Origin: a virus
Taxonomy: Duplodnaviria; Heunggongvirae; Uroviricota; Caudoviricetes
Direction: 5' to 3' (one strand)
IMG/VR virus record: IMGVR_UViG_2703718774_000012
Length of the DNA stretch: 64,000 bases
Under the pieces are notes generated by a model. It had not been told where the DNA came from, ran no database searches, and saw nothing but the letters and a program-made list of their open reading frames with translations. Positions 5,809-20,602 of the stretch are shown here, in pieces. The position numbers and the translations under genes were made by a program. Each line of letters opens with the position of its first letter. Position 1 is the stretch's first letter.

Positions 5809-6005
5809 AGTCTTTTCTCTGCTTAAAAACTGATGTATTGCGCCTTCAGGTTGGTTAGGAATGTTTTCCCACCAGCGAAAGCAATATCTCGGGGTGTTCT
5901 ATTCGTTAAAAGCGCGTGCCATTGCCAACTTTGGCGTTTTTGAGCGAGTTCGTGCTTTTGTCGGCGTCTGGACCACCGCTTTTTTTTCAGTCGTTTTTTA
6001 CACAT

Positions 6006-6494
6006 TCAAAACGGAATATCGTCGTCAAAGTCCATTGGAGGTTCGTTATTAGCGTTGCTCTGAGGTTTACCGCCACCACTGTATTGCTGGTGGTTTTGAG
6101 GTTGGTTTGATTGCCCCCAGCCATTTGTGGACTGTGAATCGTCGCGACGAGCGCCGATCATTTGCATGGTGCCGCCCTGGCTGACGATAATTTCCGTCGT
6201 GTAACGTTCTACACCGGCGTCATCTGTCCACTTACGGGTTTTAAGTTTCCCTTCGATGTAGACCTGAGAACCTTTTCGTAAATACTCACTCGCAATTTCA
6301 GCAAGTTTTCCGAACAAAACGACTTTATGCCATTCTGTTTGCTCTTTCTGTTGGCCCGTTTGCTTGTCGCGCCATGATTCATTCGTTGCGATGCTGAGTC
6401 TTCCGACCGCGCCGCCATTTGGTATATACCTGATCTCCGGGTCTTGCCCCAGGGTGCCAATCAGGATGACTTTGTTTACACCGCGTTGTGCCAC
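6006..6494 (-). CDS. ssb: single-stranded DNA-binding protein
   Basis: [20 protein letters not shown]... OB-fold N-terminus and acidic tail DFDDDIPF; GTG start. Confidence 0.95.
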
Positions 6495-6513
6495 TTATCT
6501 TACCTAATAAAAT

Positions 6514-6530
6514 AAAATAATTAGAGCAAC
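6514..6530 (-). promoter_or_regulatory. C1 operator-like site upstream of ssb
   Basis: AAAATAATTAGAGCAAC matches 14/17 of the reverse complement of the recalled P1 operator consensus ATTGCTCTAATAAATTT. Confidence 0.5.
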
Positions 6531-6663
6531 AATGTATATCTTTGAAACGTAGCTAACAAGTGATTTGCATTATCCTGTGCCTTCTAAAGGGATCGAGTCA
6601 GTCGGTATTGGCTGTGAATGGGTGTTTGTCCTGGAGCGTAAAAAATTCGCTTATGAGGTCTTT

Positions 6664-7221
6664 ATGAAGGGAAAAACAGCCGCAGGAGGCGGTGCAATTT
6701 GCGCTATCGCGGTGATGATTACCATCGTGATGGGTAATGGCAATGTGCGAACCAACCAGGCGGGGCTTGAGCTGATTGGTAACGCTGAAGGTTGCCGACG
6801 TGATCCATACATGTGCCCGGCGGGGGTATGGACTGACGGGATCGGTAATACACACGGGGTAACGCCGGGTGTGCGAAAAACCGACCAGCAAATCGCCGCT
6901 GATTGGGAAAAGAATATCCTGATCGCTGAACGCTGTATTAATCAGCACTTTCGGGGCAAAGACATGCCCGATAATGCCTTCAGTGCAATGACAAGCGCGG
7001 CATTCAATATGGGATGCAATAGCTTACGGACCTACTACAGCAAAGCGCGAGGCATGCGAGTCGAAACGTCCATCCACAAGTGGGCGCAGAAAGGGGAATG
7101 GGTGAATATGTGTAACCATCTCCCTGATTTTGTGAACAGTAACGGCGTGCCCCTGCGAGGTTTAAAGATTCGCCGTGAAAAAGAACGCCAGCTTTGCCTG
7201 ACGGGGCTGATCAATGAATAA
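6664..7221 (+). CDS. lyz: SAR endolysin (phage lysozyme, 185 aa)
   Basis: MKGKTAAGGGAICAIAVMITIV signal-arrest-release segment, then lysozyme motif ELIGNAEGCRRDPYMCPAGVWTDGIGNTHG; start taken at internal ATG 6664 of track ORF 6565..7221. Confidence 0.92.
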   Translation: MKGKTAAGGGAICAIAVMITIVMGNGNVRTNQAGLELIGNAEGCRRDPYMCPAGVWTDGIGNTHGVTPGVRKTDQQIAADWEKNILIAERCINQHFRGKDMPDNAFSAMTSAAFNMGCNSLRTYYSKARGMRVETSIHKWAQKGEWVNMCNHLPDFVNSNGVPLRGLKIRREKERQLCLTGLINE

Positions 7222-7468
7222 ACTCCGGCAGCTCCGCCGACTTTCGACAATGAAGTTATCGCTGGCGGCGATAGTTTTCGACTCGATTTTCATGGCGGTA
7301 TATGTGCTCAATGAGACGTGGCCACTGGAACCGCTATTATATGCCGGGCTTCGGCTGTGCCTGACATTTTTGAGCATGGCTGCAAGATTGATGCAGCAGA
7401 AAGAAACCGCTTCAGATTGCCCACGTCGCGCGGTGCGCAAATATATGGCACGCAGACGAAGGCGATAA
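7214..7468 (+). CDS. small membrane protein (84 aa) translationally coupled to lyz; lysis-accessory candidate
   Basis: ATG 7214 overlaps the lyz stop; hydrophobic segments; Arg-rich C-terminus. Confidence 0.5.
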   Translation: MNKLRQLRRLSTMKLSLAAIVFDSIFMAVYVLNETWPLEPLLYAGLRLCLTFLSMAARLMQQKETASDCPRRAVRKYMARRRRR

Positions 7469-17110: not shown

Positions 17111-17551
17111 ATGGCCACACTATCTGATACAATAAAACCGAATAAAACATATCTTGAGGCGGTACTGCGTACGGCGTTGTTAGGAAAGACAGAAGACGAA
17201 TACGTTGATTTCTTCCTGTCAGGGCTACGTGGGCGATTACTGAAAAATCCCCGCCTGTACCGCAGCTATGGCCCATACTGGCCGGAAATTAAAAAATTAT
17301 TACTGGAGCGCGGTTATGGTAATTTCGGTCGTCTCGTAGACCGTGACGTTCGCAAAATTTACCGTTATGACCGCCCGGCGCTAACACTCATAGCCGCGAC
17401 GCTCTACAGCCAGGAGCGTTTTGATAATGGTCAGATATACTCAGCCTGGCATTTACTGCCAGTGCCTGAAGAAGTTGACGACCAGGACTATGAGTTTGAG
17501 TCTTACGATTTGGAAGTTGAAGCCTTGGCACAGGCTGGAGAGAAAACTTGA
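17111..17551 (+). CDS. ulx: Ulx-like protein (146 aa)
   Basis: ORF directly downstream of darB and overlapping the next gene; synteny with P1 darB-ulx-lxc. Confidence 0.55.
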   Translation: MATLSDTIKPNKTYLEAVLRTALLGKTEDEYVDFFLSGLRGRLLKNPRLYRSYGPYWPEIKKLLLERGYGNFGRLVDRDVRKIYRYDRPALTLIAATLYSQERFDNGQIYSAWHLLPVPEEVDDQDYEFESYDLEVEALAQAGEKT

Positions 17552-17796
17552 AAAAGCGATACTACACAGTAAAGCATGGGACGCTACGAGCATTACAAGA
17601 GTTTGCTGACAAGCATAACGTTGAGGTGCGCAGGGAAGGGGGAAGTAAAGCTCTGCGCATGTACCGTCCGGACGGGAAATGGCGGACGGTCGTCGATTTC
17701 AAAACTAACAGCGTTCCCCAGGGCGTCCGCGACCGGGCATTCGAAGAATGGGAACAGATCATCATAGATAACGCATTGCTCCTGAATGCGGATTGA
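17548..17796 (+). CDS. lxc: Lxc/Bof-like modulator (82 aa)
   Basis: 82-aa ORF coupled to ulx; size and position as P1 lxc. Confidence 0.55.
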   Translation: MKKRYYTVKHGTLRALQEFADKHNVEVRREGGSKALRMYRPDGKWRTVVDFKTNSVPQGVRDRAFEEWEQIIIDNALLLNAD

Positions 17797-17805
17797 TTTA
17801 TATAT

Positions 17806-17835
17806 CGGGCAGTTGTAGCTGCCCGTTAAATTTTT
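17806..17835 (+). terminator. rho-independent terminator
   Basis: CGGGCAGTTGTAGCTGCCCG hairpin followed by TTAAATTTTT. Confidence 0.8.
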
Positions 17836-17847
17836 GCCGCTCTTCAA

Positions 17848-19155
17848 TTACACTATATCTTTTACTATAGAATTAGCATCCTCCAGTACGCCAATTTCTT
17901 CGATGCGTTTTTTTATTATTAATCGATTTGAAGCAATGATTGTGGACCATCTTGTTTCCCAAGCTCTATAAGCATGCCACGAATAACCTAATCTCATTTC
18001 TTTGCTCATGTTGGACATTGAGTATTCAACGGCGTCTAAATATTCATTTTCATACTTAGTTCCACCAATTTCTAAAAGGCTGCCGAAATATATAAGCCAT
18101 TTTGCAAGCTGCTCGTATTGCTCCCAAGCACCACTCTCTCTTGTTAAATCTCTTTTTTGTTTTATTATTCTCTTGAAAAAATCAACTACTTGTCCGTCAT
18201 TCCAGTCGAAACCCTCAGATATAATCGAGGAGGTTATTTGATAGAATGAATCTTCTAATCTAAGGTATTCATCCTTATAGTTGAAAGTGCCTGATAAAAC
18301 TCTTTTTATACTTTGTCTGGCTCTTGCTATGACGCCTTCAATTAACATTATGTTAATGCTCAATCTCTTAAAGAAAGAGTCTATTTCGGTGTTGTCAATT
18401 ACTCGTATTCCAAAACAATAAAAATAATAATCCTTCATATCTTGACTTACTTCACTGCGAGAGATGAAAAATATATTAGAGCACAGAGCGTTACCTTTCG
18501 AGAATATTTTGTAATCATTTATAATTGCTTTTAGGTTCGTGTCGCTTAAAGAATAGCCTAATATCGCAACTGTATTTTCATGCAGCATCGTGCTAAGTTT
18601 TCGAGAGAAATAAGTGTCGGAGTTTATAAACCTAAAATAGTCTTCTGATGTAACAATCATGTTTTGTGGAGAGTCAATAGAACCATGGACATGATATATT
18701 TTAACTTTGGAGGGATATTTAGGAATAGGTAAGCCTGGGGTAATAGACTGAACCTCCTCATCTCCAGTTAAGTATTCAGCTAACTTGTCATAATTCGTTG
18801 TAATGACACGAAATGTTCTTTTTTGAAAAAAATCCTTTATATTTGATATATCTTCGCCAAGTTGTATTGGAGATATGATGTCAACAATTTCATCATAAAT
18901 CGACTTGCCTTCAATGTTGAGCTTCAAAGATAGTATCTGTGCGGCTTCTTCAAGACTCAGTGCTGGTGGTTTATCATCAGGGAATAACGTGTCTTCCAAC
19001 TGTTTGGCGTTGTGAACTTTGCTGCAAACTTTTTTTAATAGTTCTTTCCACGTTGGTGCTTCGCCGTTCGAGACTGCCTTTGAAAAGCCAGTCCCGGTAA
19101 ATAGACAAAGCCTGCTTGTAGCGGCAGCGTATGCTAACTCAACATATTCGCTCAT
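17848..19155 (-). CDS. SIR2-like (SIR2_2-type) protein, 435 aa; candidate defence effector
   Basis: Motifs LFTGTGFS (GAGxS-like), TTNYD, HVHGS and ILGYSLSD in the N-terminal half; markedly lower GC than flanks; RBS GGAG. Confidence 0.8.
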   Translation of the reverse strand: MSEYVELAYAAATSRLCLFTGTGFSKAVSNGEAPTWKELLKKVCSKVHNAKQLEDTLFPDDKPPALSLEEAAQILSLKLNIEGKSIYDEIVDIISPIQLGEDISNIKDFFQKRTFRVITTNYDKLAEYLTGDEEVQSITPGLPIPKYPSKVKIYHVHGSIDSPQNMIVTSEDYFRFINSDTYFSRKLSTMLHENTVAILGYSLSDTNLKAIINDYKIFSKGNALCSNIFFISRSEVSQDMKDYYFYCFGIRVIDNTEIDSFFKRLSINIMLIEGVIARARQSIKRVLSGTFNYKDEYLRLEDSFYQITSSIISEGFDWNDGQVVDFFKRIIKQKRDLTRESGAWEQYEQLAKWLIYFGSLLEIGGTKYENEYLDAVEYSMSNMSKEMRLGYSWHAYRAWETRWSTIIASNRLIIKKRIEEIGVLEDANSIVKDIV

Positions 19156-19211
19156 TACTTACTCCATTTACTTATAGTTCTATGGAGAAGTATACCCTAA
19201 TGCATTGACGT

Positions 19212-19853
19212 TTATAGATAATTTCCTTTTCCTGTTAATTCCCCTTTCGGCACCCGTTTTTGTGCCAGCGTTTGGGTTCCGCGAATTATGTTAATCAGAG
19301 GGCTTAGTAACGATGGCTCCTGGCGGGCCTCAACTTCTCCAGCCATTGCCCTGATGTAGTCGGCGCTGGCAACGTTGTTGTATTCCGTCGCAAAGCAACA
19401 TAGTAACGTCAGAACATGTTCTGTCGTTATTTCGCTCCAGTTGATGTTGAAAAATTCATCGCCTTTTTTATCGTGTTCGGAATCGAAGATGCTTTGGTGA
19501 AGGATGTATTTGCCGGATTCCTTGCGCGGTAACTTGATCGCTTTCTGGCGTTCCAATTCCTTGTAAATCTGCATTGCTTCAATCAGTACCGGTCTGCCGT
19601 TCATGAAGGGATCACGCAACCTTACACGCTGGCCAACTCGACCGGTAATAAAGCTGTTTTCCTCTTCCACCAGCACGATAAAACCCTTTTCCTCTTTTTC
19701 TCGCAATTCGCGCAGCAGCTGGAGTTCCATATCGCGGCGGCGTTCAGGGTAGCTGGTCCGCTCAGCCATGATCAGCTCATTGTTGATCCATGCAGCAGTC
19801 ATTGACGCCGGTTTGCCGACGCTCATTGAAACAACGCATATTTTCTTATCCAT
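19212..19853 (-). CDS. mat: Mat-like particle maturation protein (213 aa)
   Basis: Track ORF 19212..19880; start at ATG 19853 with RBS AGGGG; position between ref and the res/mod slot. Confidence 0.5.
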   Translation of the reverse strand: MDKKICVVSMSVGKPASMTAAWINNELIMAERTSYPERRRDMELQLLRELREKEEKGFIVLVEEENSFITGRVGQRVRLRDPFMNGRPVLIEAMQIYKELERQKAIKLPRKESGKYILHQSIFDSEHDKKGDEFFNINWSEITTEHVLTLLCCFATEYNNVASADYIRAMAGEVEARQEPSLLSPLINIIRGTQTLAQKRVPKGELTGKGNYL

Positions 19854-20041
19854 AGCGCCCCTACAAAAAAGAAAAGCCACCAGCGGCGGCTTAGCAATAC
19901 AACTGAAGGTAGCGCCCGGTACTCAGACTGTGCCGTCCATGGAATATTTGAAAAGGGATCCATCCGTACCGGGCGTGTGATGATTCTGACTGAAGTCACT
20001 TGTCAGTTGTCAATCATTTATCATTAAAAATAATATATTTA

Positions 20042-20602
20042 TTAGTGCATGATGTTTGCCATCTCATAGGCATCAGCCAGTAACTCCATCTCTGACTTGT
20101 TCAGCAAGATGAATTCTTTCTTGCCTCCAACCACACCATCGGCATGAACAGGGACCAGCCATGGGTATTTTTCTCTTACTTCAGCCGGAGCTGCATGCTG
20201 GTGGTGCCATCTACAAAGTGGCAATTGCTTTTTATGACAACCCGGCGCGGTACGACCGGCGATATGGTGCAGAGACACCTCATTAGATATTACTCCATGC
20301 ATATAGCAGGCAATGCAGGGGAGAGCGCCAAGAGCATTGGCGATGCGCCGTTCCTCCGCCGTTGGTGTTCTCCCCTTCAAGCCACGAGATTTTATTTTTA
20401 CCGCGCTTTTCCGCGTTTTGCTGGCTGGTGGGCGCTCTTTCTGTTTAGCGATACGGCGGTCGATAGAATCCCGCATTTTCTGATATTGCGATTCTCTCCA
20501 GGCGGGGTCAGCCAACTTTTCCCGTTGCCGAGCGATCGCTCGTTCTCTGGCTGCCTTCTGCCACTCGCGGCGCTGTTCAAGTTTTTGTTCGATTGTTTTC
20601 AT
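20042..20602 (-). CDS. ref: Ref recombination enhancement function, HNH endonuclease (186 aa)
   Basis: MKTIEQKLEQRREWQKAARERA... with Cys/His cluster CIACYMHG...CRWHHQH; start at internal ATG 20602 of track ORF 20042..20707. Confidence 0.9.
   Translation of the reverse strand: MKTIEQKLEQRREWQKAARERAIARQREKLADPAWRESQYQKMRDSIDRRIAKQKERPPASKTRKSAVKIKSRGLKGRTPTAEERRIANALGALPCIACYMHGVISNEVSLHHIAGRTAPGCHKKQLPLCRWHHQHAAPAEVREKYPWLVPVHADGVVGGKKEFILLNKSEMELLADAYEMANIMH

Follow-up and report, generated by a model that had tools for sequence, protein, structure and literature searches.

To our knowledge, the single-protein SIR2 defences of the NADase type (hydrolysing nicotinamide adenine dinucleotide, NAD+) that have been characterised, DSR1 and DSR2, are large, and small SIR2 defences depend on further proteins. 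In ThsA, gcADPR is bound by a SLOG domain at the C-terminus, and the protein requires ThsB, a TIR protein encoded next to it; KomC of the Kongming system is a bare 264-residue SIR2 protein working with KomA and KomB; SIR2-HerA needs HerA, and SPARSA a short prokaryotic Argonaute (pAgo). In this study, we examined a SIR2-family gene encoding 435 residues in the viral record IMGVR_UViG_2703718774_000012 (Caudoviricetes), analysed as one stretch of 64,000 nucleotides (the window). The window belongs to a P1-like phage-plasmid, with darB, ulx and lxc on the plus strand and mat, ref, c8 and cre on the minus strand, and the gene lies between lxc and mat.

We found this gene to represent a real and widespread family that joins a SIR2 domain to an alpha-solenoid in one stand-alone protein, and that is a variant of the established SIR2 NADase defences rather than a new category. 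A defence function is what a specialist would predict for a protein of this kind, and we consider an anti-phage role very probable. As the best explanation overall, to which we give a probability of roughly 0.55, we propose a one-protein sensor-effector, carried as exchangeable cargo of a hotspot between lxc and mat, that would deplete NAD+ upon infection.

The SIR2 domain and its likely chemistry

A first-pass annotation of the window had described a 435-residue SIR2-like protein with four SIR2_2 motifs. All four are legible in the translation (LFTGTGFS at residues 18-25, TTNYD at 119-123, HVHGS at 155-159 and ILGYSLSD at 198-205), and the Pfam profile SIR2_2 (PF13289) matches residues 117-252 with an E-value of 1.9e-23 and 83.6 bits, well above its gathering cutoff of 24.5, which is also passed by 10 distant family members. 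Over its whole length the protein aligns with phrog_7567, the function of which is not known. With at least 705 homologues, and a ratio of nonsynonymous to synonymous substitution rates (dN/dS) of 0.12-0.14 between three close alleles, the open reading frame is a real gene under purifying selection.

The catalytic residues of SIR2_2 proteins are intact. In alignments to solved proteins, N121 falls on N112 of ThsA, and H157 on H171 of DSR2 and H146 of KomC; across 54 homologues with identities of 51-88%, neither residue varies, nor do T119, T120, Y122, D123, H155 or the GTGFS loop. An AlphaFold2 model built from 54 sequences (predicted local distance difference test, pLDDT, 87.1; predicted template modelling score, pTM, 0.75) contains a Rossmann-type SIR2 domain followed by helices at residues 258-431. 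When the whole model was compared with the Protein Data Bank (PDB) by Foldseek, the top matches were the SIR2 domains of DSR2, ThsA and KomC (E ~1e-11), with template modelling (TM) scores of 0.64-0.74 as normalised to SIR2-only or KomC chains, and the C-terminal half contributed nothing to these matches. Because these structural neighbours of the N-terminal half are all NADase defence effectors, they support a defence role. The SIR2_2 (SIRim) clade overall shows a 12-fold enrichment near defence systems and is hence predicted to be immune (10.1101/2024.09.18.613514). Judging from residues and fold, the protein probably acts as an NADase.

Neither the sequence nor the fold tells NAD+ hydrolysis apart from other reactions that consume NAD+, and a defence could also proceed with no bulk NAD+ depletion, either by ADP-ribosylation of a phage or host target or through a signalling nucleotide made from NAD+. 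SIR2_2 proteins may have other NAD-processing activities, and SirTM sirtuins ADP-ribosylate proteins (PMC12700824). Such a chemistry would be compatible with the location of the gene as well, since its slot favours defence and not a particular chemistry. Nevertheless, we regard it as unlikely, as the characterised close structural relatives (ThsA, DSR2 and KomC) are all NADases, and no conserved downstream effector gene is found that could receive a signal.

RefSeq names the product "SIR2 family NAD-dependent protein deacylase", which would make it an ordinary NAD-dependent enzyme with a housekeeping or regulatory role. This name is probably a misnomer. Canonical deacetylases require a zinc-binding module, which NADase-type SIR2_2 proteins lack (PMC12700824). 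The protein examined here has only four cysteines (residues 17, 44, 225 and 247) and no CxxC pair, and therefore no zinc (Cys4) module, and its family is SIR2_2 rather than canonical SIR2. Further, the gene is AT-rich mobile cargo of patchy occurrence, most of it on phage-plasmids (141 of 5,426 complete E. coli genomes, or 2.6%, have a family member, with 136 plasmid and 10 chromosomal positions), and it sits in a slot where validated defences occur. A deacylase role is, on these grounds, highly improbable.

The lxc-mat slot

The annotation had placed the gene where P1 carries its res and mod genes, and alignment of the mat-lxc interval to P1 and its relatives bears out an exchange of cassettes at this position. 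Alignments to P1 and RCS47 break off at 17794, with the lxc stop, and pick up again at 19212-19216, with the mat stop, which delimits the variable segment to the cassette listed in Table 1. In P1, the slot measures 6,283 bp and holds res and mod (EcoP1I) together with IS5; in RCS47, only 41 bp separate the stop codons of lxc and mat, which leaves the slot empty. The 6.3-kb interval of the window is 100% identical to E. coli plasmid NZ_AP027178.1, and mat is annotated as a 642-bp coding sequence in the identical plasmid NZ_CP027575.1. The gene is also, as had been remarked, AT-richer than its surroundings, with a GC content of 0.33-0.39 (about 35% against some 50% in the flanks; darB, ulx and lxc about 0.50, mat and ref 0.46-0.51).

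Slot contents were surveyed across 712 plasmid records matching the region. The slot is occupied by the SIR2 gene, a RelA/SpoT gene, a DUF2971 gene, a YaaC gene with a gene for a 169-residue protein, an EAL gene or a GNAT gene, or by nothing. These cargos occur in either orientation, are always AT-rich (GC 0.32-0.39), and each has its own hairpin beside lxc; the SIR2 gene points in the direction of mat, ref and cre, opposite to res and mod in P1. Thus, the SIR2 cassette has the properties of a hotspot cargo, being a discrete AT-rich insert bordered by the lxc and mat stops and replaced by other cargo in related elements.

What this slot is used for provides the strongest contextual argument for defence. 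The P1-like Salmonella phage SJ46 carries the RelA/SpoT cargo CapRel-SJ46 in the same slot and in the orientation of the SIR2 gene, and CapRel-SJ46 is an experimentally validated defence, in which the toxin at the N-terminus is released once the C-terminal domain has detected a capsid protein of the phage (PMC9712102). The DUF2971 cargo matches the PADLOC candidate PDC-S31. As EcoP1I and CapRel-SJ46, both proven defences, and a third, candidate one share this position, the SIR2 gene is likely to be a defence as well.

The hairpin at the lxc-proximal end of the cassette had been read as the terminator of the darB-ulx-lxc operon. It is indeed terminator-like, and may terminate that operon, but it lies inside the variable cassette and not in the P1 backbone; its sequence changes with the SIR2 allele class and with the cargo type, and it evidently travels with the cargo.

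Three other cargos of the slot have no PADLOC match, namely the YaaC-family gene with its 169-residue companion (locus L133:1856-3405), the EAL-domain gene (L134:1798-3470, preceded by about 1 kb that holds no annotated gene) and the GNAT acetyltransferase gene (L135:1880-2488). Their position, shared with EcoP1I, CapRel-SJ46 and the SIR2 gene, makes candidates of them for a role in defence or counter-defence. A second variable position lies between mat and ref (about 19881-20041) and is empty in the window; in a P1-like plasmid of E. fergusonii it holds a DUF4145 gene (L012:4662-5516) with weak similarity to PD-T7-4 (E=2.9e-4). Other records contain genes for a KilAC antirepressor, or for a helix-turn-helix protein and a metallo-beta-lactamase-fold hydrolase, somewhere within the matched 6-kb region.

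Table 1. Features of the SIR2 cassette and its borders, in coordinates of the window
Feature	Coordinates	Strand	Description
SIR2-family gene	17848..19155	-	ATG start; 435 residues plus stop; supported by open reading frame list, SIR2_2, phrog_7567, dN/dS
N-terminal SIR2 (SIR2_2/"SIRim") domain of NADase type	18385..19155	-	Residues 1-257; GTGFS NAD-binding loop 21-25; N121 and H157 catalytic
C-terminal alpha-solenoid domain (putative sensor/regulatory)	17848..18384	-	Residues 258-435 plus stop codon
56-nt leader, mat stop to SIR2 ATG	19156..19211	-	GGAG ribosome-binding site 7 nt upstream of ATG
P1 Omat (C1 operator), Pmat and LPmat region, upstream of mat	19983..20051	-	Sequence identity to P1 2620-2700
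AT-rich cargo cassette, 1,417 bp	17795..19211	.	Between lxc and mat stops; GC 0.36
lxc, left border of slot, P1 backbone	17548..17796	+	Open reading frame; 98-99% identical to P1 and RCS47; annotated lxc there
mat, right border of slot, P1 backbone	19212..19853	-	Directly upstream of SIR2 gene; 96% identical to P1 and RCS47
GC-rich hairpin and T-run, terminator-like	17806..17835	.	lxc-proximal end of cassette; terminator scan

The C-terminal alpha-solenoid

The remainder of the protein had been described as about 190 residues with no recognised motif. It is somewhat shorter (about 178 residues, 258-435). Modelled alone, the domain gives a confident prediction (pLDDT 90.9) of an alpha-solenoid, that is, a helical repeat, for which no specific solved relative was found: Foldseek returned no match at E<=0.001, and nothing in the PDB matched the domain by sequence search, the family profile included. 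When 1.84 billion representatives were searched exhaustively by phmmer with residues 260-435, 78 proteins were matched, which are either proteins of about 430-460 residues with the domain in the same C-terminal position or shorter ones that we read as fragments, and all 10 of the distant full-length matches that were checked carry SIR2_2. The domain is therefore specific to this architecture. It has no similarity to SLOG or Macro domains.

Within the solenoid, a core rich in Trp and Tyr (W344, Y347, W353, W393, W399 and W403) is invariant in the 54 homologues. Helical repeats are a protein-binding fold class. Because of this, because a protein that stands alone has no other part to serve as regulator, and because this domain is the most variable between alleles, we propose a regulatory or sensory role for it; that it senses a phage protein directly is a tentative proposal.

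Two kinds of shortened sequence were seen. The 156 positions of phrog_35181, and many short database proteins, correspond to the C-terminal domain alone, and on two P1-like IMG/VR contigs (L110 and L114) the SIR2 reading frame is shortened to 274 and 338 residues. They may be products of fragmentary assembly, or else genes that were frameshifted or split, in which case a fitness cost would be suggested.

Family distribution and gene neighbourhood

Most of the best 120 homologues are 431-437 residues long and align over the full length. In species-representative genomes, we located 72 loci, spread over Gamma-, Beta- and Alphaproteobacteria and a few Actinobacteria and others. Viral contigs contributed about 29 full-length copies, 16 of the 27 analysed being P1-like, and by tblastn 127 plasmid records have a family member, nearly all of them Escherichia elements of 90-100 kb and together about one-sixth of the 712 P1-like records. 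The family is carried by both prophages and phage-plasmids. On E. coli chromosomes, a 59%-identical copy (loci L004-L007, gene 6001-7311) is found by itself where a lambdoid-type prophage ends, between the integrase, which it directly follows, and the host ccm (cytochrome c maturation) genes, a typical moron position; in one of these strains, an AIDA-type autotransporter gene follows it. A Halomonas homologue is found among HNH, DUF4145, HSDR_N and DUF87 genes.

To ask whether the protein has a regular companion, 2,867 open reading frames of at least 70 residues within 5 kb of 90 loci, 74 of them outside P1-like elements, were compared all against all by BLAST. No neighbour family occurs in more than six of the 74 non-P1 loci and none is constant in position or strand, and the family most often seen as nearest gene upstream or downstream has three occurrences; a smaller earlier test likewise returned no conserved partner. 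The family is therefore truly single-gene, in agreement with the annotation, which had seen no adjacent partner in the window, where the flanks are lxc and mat.

The 138 nearest neighbours in these 74 loci are a mix of defence, mobile-element (S24 repressors, resolvases) and housekeeping genes. Defence genes are often among them: PDC-S31 three times, MADS twice, and PD-T7-1, PD-T7-5, dGTPase, AbiD, AbiU, GajB, RT-TIR and ThsB once each. The one ThsB-like TIR protein (PADLOC ThsB1, E=6e-52) probably belongs to an adjacent Thoeris system in a defence island.

These counts also bear on whether the protein might be an orphan signal-activated effector, like ThsA of Thoeris or LmuA of Lamassu, that needs a partner encoded elsewhere. 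PADLOC models match it in part (ThsA1, E=2.3e-17; the SIR2-type LmuA model of 433 residues, E=1.7e-16), and besides the ThsB-like gene two of the 138 neighbours have SMC_N. However, the ThsA and LmuA matches stop at the SIR2 core (at residue 241 and 224, respectively), the C-terminus is an alpha-solenoid that resembles neither SLOG nor Macro and is matched only within this architecture, and no TIR, SMC or other partner recurs in the 74 loci. We rejected this explanation as improbable.

Allelic variation

Within the P1 slot, alleles fall into classes of 100, 88, 84 and 57-59% protein identity. Among the three close alleles, amino acid identity is 93-95% in the SIR2 half and 69-79% in the C-terminal half, so that the C-terminal domain is the fastest-diverging part of the protein. 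The long helix that precedes the solenoid repeats (residues 258-300) shows the highest dN (0.20-0.31), with dN/dS at or below 0.30, and is the least conserved stretch across the family. Synonymous divergence (dS) is very uneven, at 0.10-0.17 in codons 1-100 and above 1 further on, which argues for mosaic recombination rather than divergence in place.

The leader and expression of the gene

All 20 P1-like loci with the SIR2 gene have nearly the same leader between mat and that gene (95-100% identity), including those with the 57-59% alleles, in which nucleotide identity falls to about 65% straight after the start codon. It is absent from non-P1 family loci and from the other slot cargo types. 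It may serve as promoter, in translational control or as recombination anchor, and either function or anchoring may account for its conservation. As a structured RNA it found no support (no significant fold, z=-0.08), and a comparison by hand with the C1 operator consensus gave about 8 of 17 matches.

P1 is annotated with Omat at 2628-2645 and Pmat/LPmat, the latter a late promoter, at 2666-2696, and the corresponding stretch of the window is identical base for base. The SIR2 gene follows mat on the same strand after 56 nt that contain no terminator; the two may therefore share a transcript, and expression of the SIR2 gene may depend on repressor or late functions. From this arises a different reading, in which the gene is part of the lytic programme, co-transcribed with mat from a C1-repressed or late promoter and acting in P1 development against co-infecting phages or satellites, against NAD-dependent defences of the host, or in host takeover. 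The arrangement of the genes, the lack of a convincing promoter in the leader, and the retention of Omat, Pmat and LPmat upstream of mat are in keeping with it, as are the near-invariant leader in front of 57%-identical alleles, which suggests a P1-linked constraint, and the anti-restriction functions of the neighbours darB and ulx. Yet the majority of family members are found on chromosomes or in unrelated prophages, where they have promoter-like upstream regions of their own and no P1 genes nearby, and the other characterised cargos of the slot defend the lysogen. CapRel-SJ46, which points the same way, is functional under its native promoter (PMC9712102); its upstream region is longer than, and different from, the SIR2 leader. 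A weak or non-canonical internal promoter in the leader is possible and could have been missed by a simple consensus scan. We therefore consider a role in the lytic programme to be rather unlikely, and somewhat less probable than a defence with other NAD+ chemistry.

Four non-P1 enterobacterial loci (L004, L071, L087 and L107) share a promoter-like motif in the 80 nt upstream of the gene, roughly TATTGA[AT]AA, about 15 nt, TGTAT[GT]TTT, then AAAAGGA and the ATG, which is unlike the P1 leader and suggests independent transcription outside P1. Regarding mat itself (19212-19999 region), the gene of the window is shorter than that of P1 (642-669 vs 753 bp), as it is in RCS47 and many plasmids. An open reading frame of 58 residues (19823-19999) encodes the N-terminal sequence of P1 Mat (MDPFSNIPW...) in another frame, indicating a frame difference relative to P1, and a terminator-like hairpin with T-run (19892-19874) lies between Pmat and the shorter mat start.

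Proposed function

Our preferred explanation, the one-protein sensor-effector, can be put as follows. The effector would be the N-terminal SIR2_2 domain, which, once active, would hydrolyse NAD+, as its residues and fold suggest. Assuming that the gene is expressed in the lysogen, the C-terminal solenoid of 178 residues would hold the enzyme off in uninfected cells, and its binding of a phage-made protein would switch the enzyme on, probably by a change of oligomeric state, for which tetramers of DSR2 and filaments of ThsA offer an analogy. Loss of NAD+ would starve the infected cell and abort replication of the superinfecting phage, such that the host population of the phage-plasmid is protected. 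The alleles, differing mostly in the C-terminal domain, would recognise different phages.

Several points weigh against this proposal. The defence role of the family is argued from sequence, structural model, genomic position and analogy. No phage genome deposited in INPHARED carries the SIR2 gene, by megablast or tblastn. Positive selection on the C-terminal domain, which we considered, is not supported, dN/dS being below 1 everywhere with a regional maximum of 0.30-0.31. No convincing sigma-70 promoter is seen in the leader, where no site passes the scan and inspection by hand yields weak hexamers, and mat, with which the gene may be co-transcribed, is C1- and late-controlled in P1, a control that would be odd for a defence needed in the lysogen. 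The conserved Trp/Tyr core could equally be a structural core or a pocket for a small ligand, and two P1-like copies have truncated SIR2 reading frames.

A bolder version of the proposal would see in the protein the smallest self-contained SIR2 immune receptor, in which the architecture-specific solenoid reads a phage protein and gates the NADase, and in which the alleles (100, 88, 84 and 57-59%) are specificity variants behind an invariant 56-nt leader that ties expression to the C1/late circuit of P1, keeping defence in step with the life cycle. We consider this version doubtful, if more probable than any of the four rival explanations weighed above.

If the protein is self-sufficient, its 435 residues would be a minimal model of how a short helical repeat senses infection and gates a SIR2 enzyme, and the natural allele series in one slot offers ready-made specificity swaps. 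Small size, allele series, invariant leader and well-defined hotspot together make it a good experimental target. Beyond the single gene, the lxc-mat interval of P1-like phage-plasmids is now defined as a defence hotspot, with EcoP1I, CapRel-SJ46 and, in about one-sixth of records, the SIR2 gene, and its unannotated cargos (YaaC with the 169-residue protein, EAL and GNAT) are candidates because of where they lie. E. coli from clinical and livestock sources often carries P1-like elements, and their defence cargo bears on the outcome of phage therapy and on competition between phages.

Comparison with known SIR2 systems

In layout, the protein is closest to DSR2 (from Bacillus subtilis 29R) and DSR1, each likewise one protein with an N-terminal SIR2 NADase and an all-helical repeat C-terminus, and the SIR2 domain of DSR2 is its best structural match (Foldseek E=5e-12; TM 0.72-0.74 on SIR2-only chains). 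It is nevertheless distinct from these proteins and much shorter, as the annotation had held. The NCBIfam equivalogs for DSR1 and DSR2 (about 1,200 residues, cutoff 1400) score 25.8 and 23 bits on it, through the SIR2 core only. The DSR proteins have a long helical sensor at the C-terminus, which binds a structural protein of the phage; the C-terminus of the 435-residue protein is also a helical repeat, about four times shorter and with no detectable homology to that of DSR2, and its binding of such a protein would be a prediction.

The small SIR2 proteins share the enzyme and differ in what surrounds it. ThsA, at 476 residues, has a SIR2_2 domain with the catalytic Asn and His retained; where it has SLOG, our protein has the alpha-solenoid, and ThsB is adjacent in 1 of the 74 loci, with no TIR ThsB in the window. 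KomC is the closest match in the PDB by sequence of the single protein (E=6.2e-07), with its catalytic His aligned, yet no KomA or KomB stands beside the 435-residue family. Neither HerA nor a short pAgo stands at the lxc and mat flanks, and neither recurs as a partner in the 74 loci. The SIR2-type LmuA model of Lamassu aligns only over positions 14-224 of 433, and the window contains no SMC-like LmuB. Avs5 (SIR2-STAND) has a central STAND NTPase domain, for which our protein gives no NTPase match in Pfam, NCBIfam or PADLOC and, at 435 residues, has no room. The best PADLOC match is PDC-S25 (E=2.1e-27), also predicted to be a single-gene SIR2 system and itself a candidate with no known mechanism; the models of PDC-S25 and phrog_2695 have 517-531 positions, of which only the SIR2 core (about 126-286) aligns, to residues 101-256; in the PDC-S25 models themselves (517-528 positions), the aligned part is 128-286.

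No characterised defence protein in PADLOC, NCBIfam or the PDB is matched over the full length. A Sir2 homologue is mentioned among the PD systems of Vassallo et al. 2022, and none of the PADLOC models PD-T4, PD-T7 and PD-lambda matches the SIR2 protein. We found no paper naming or testing this family in a literature that was covered incompletely, most subscription journals lying outside, which is consistent with the suggestion of the first-pass annotation that the type is not yet characterised. The 435-residue protein is thus not a member of DSR1/2, ThsA, LmuA, KomC, SIR2-HerA, SPARSA, Avs5 or PDC-S25.

A further comparison is with its slot-mate. CapRel-SJ46, a fused toxin-antitoxin defence, occupies the identical slot in the identical orientation and combines in one polypeptide an N-terminal toxic enzyme with a C-terminal autoinhibitory sensor of a phage protein (PMC9712102), yet it is a toxSAS tRNA pyrophosphokinase, of unrelated fold and chemistry and with no sequence similarity to the SIR2 protein. 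By analogy with both, we propose that the protein would work most like DSR2, as a single protein composed of a SIR2 enzyme and a helical sensor, and by the logic of CapRel-SJ46.

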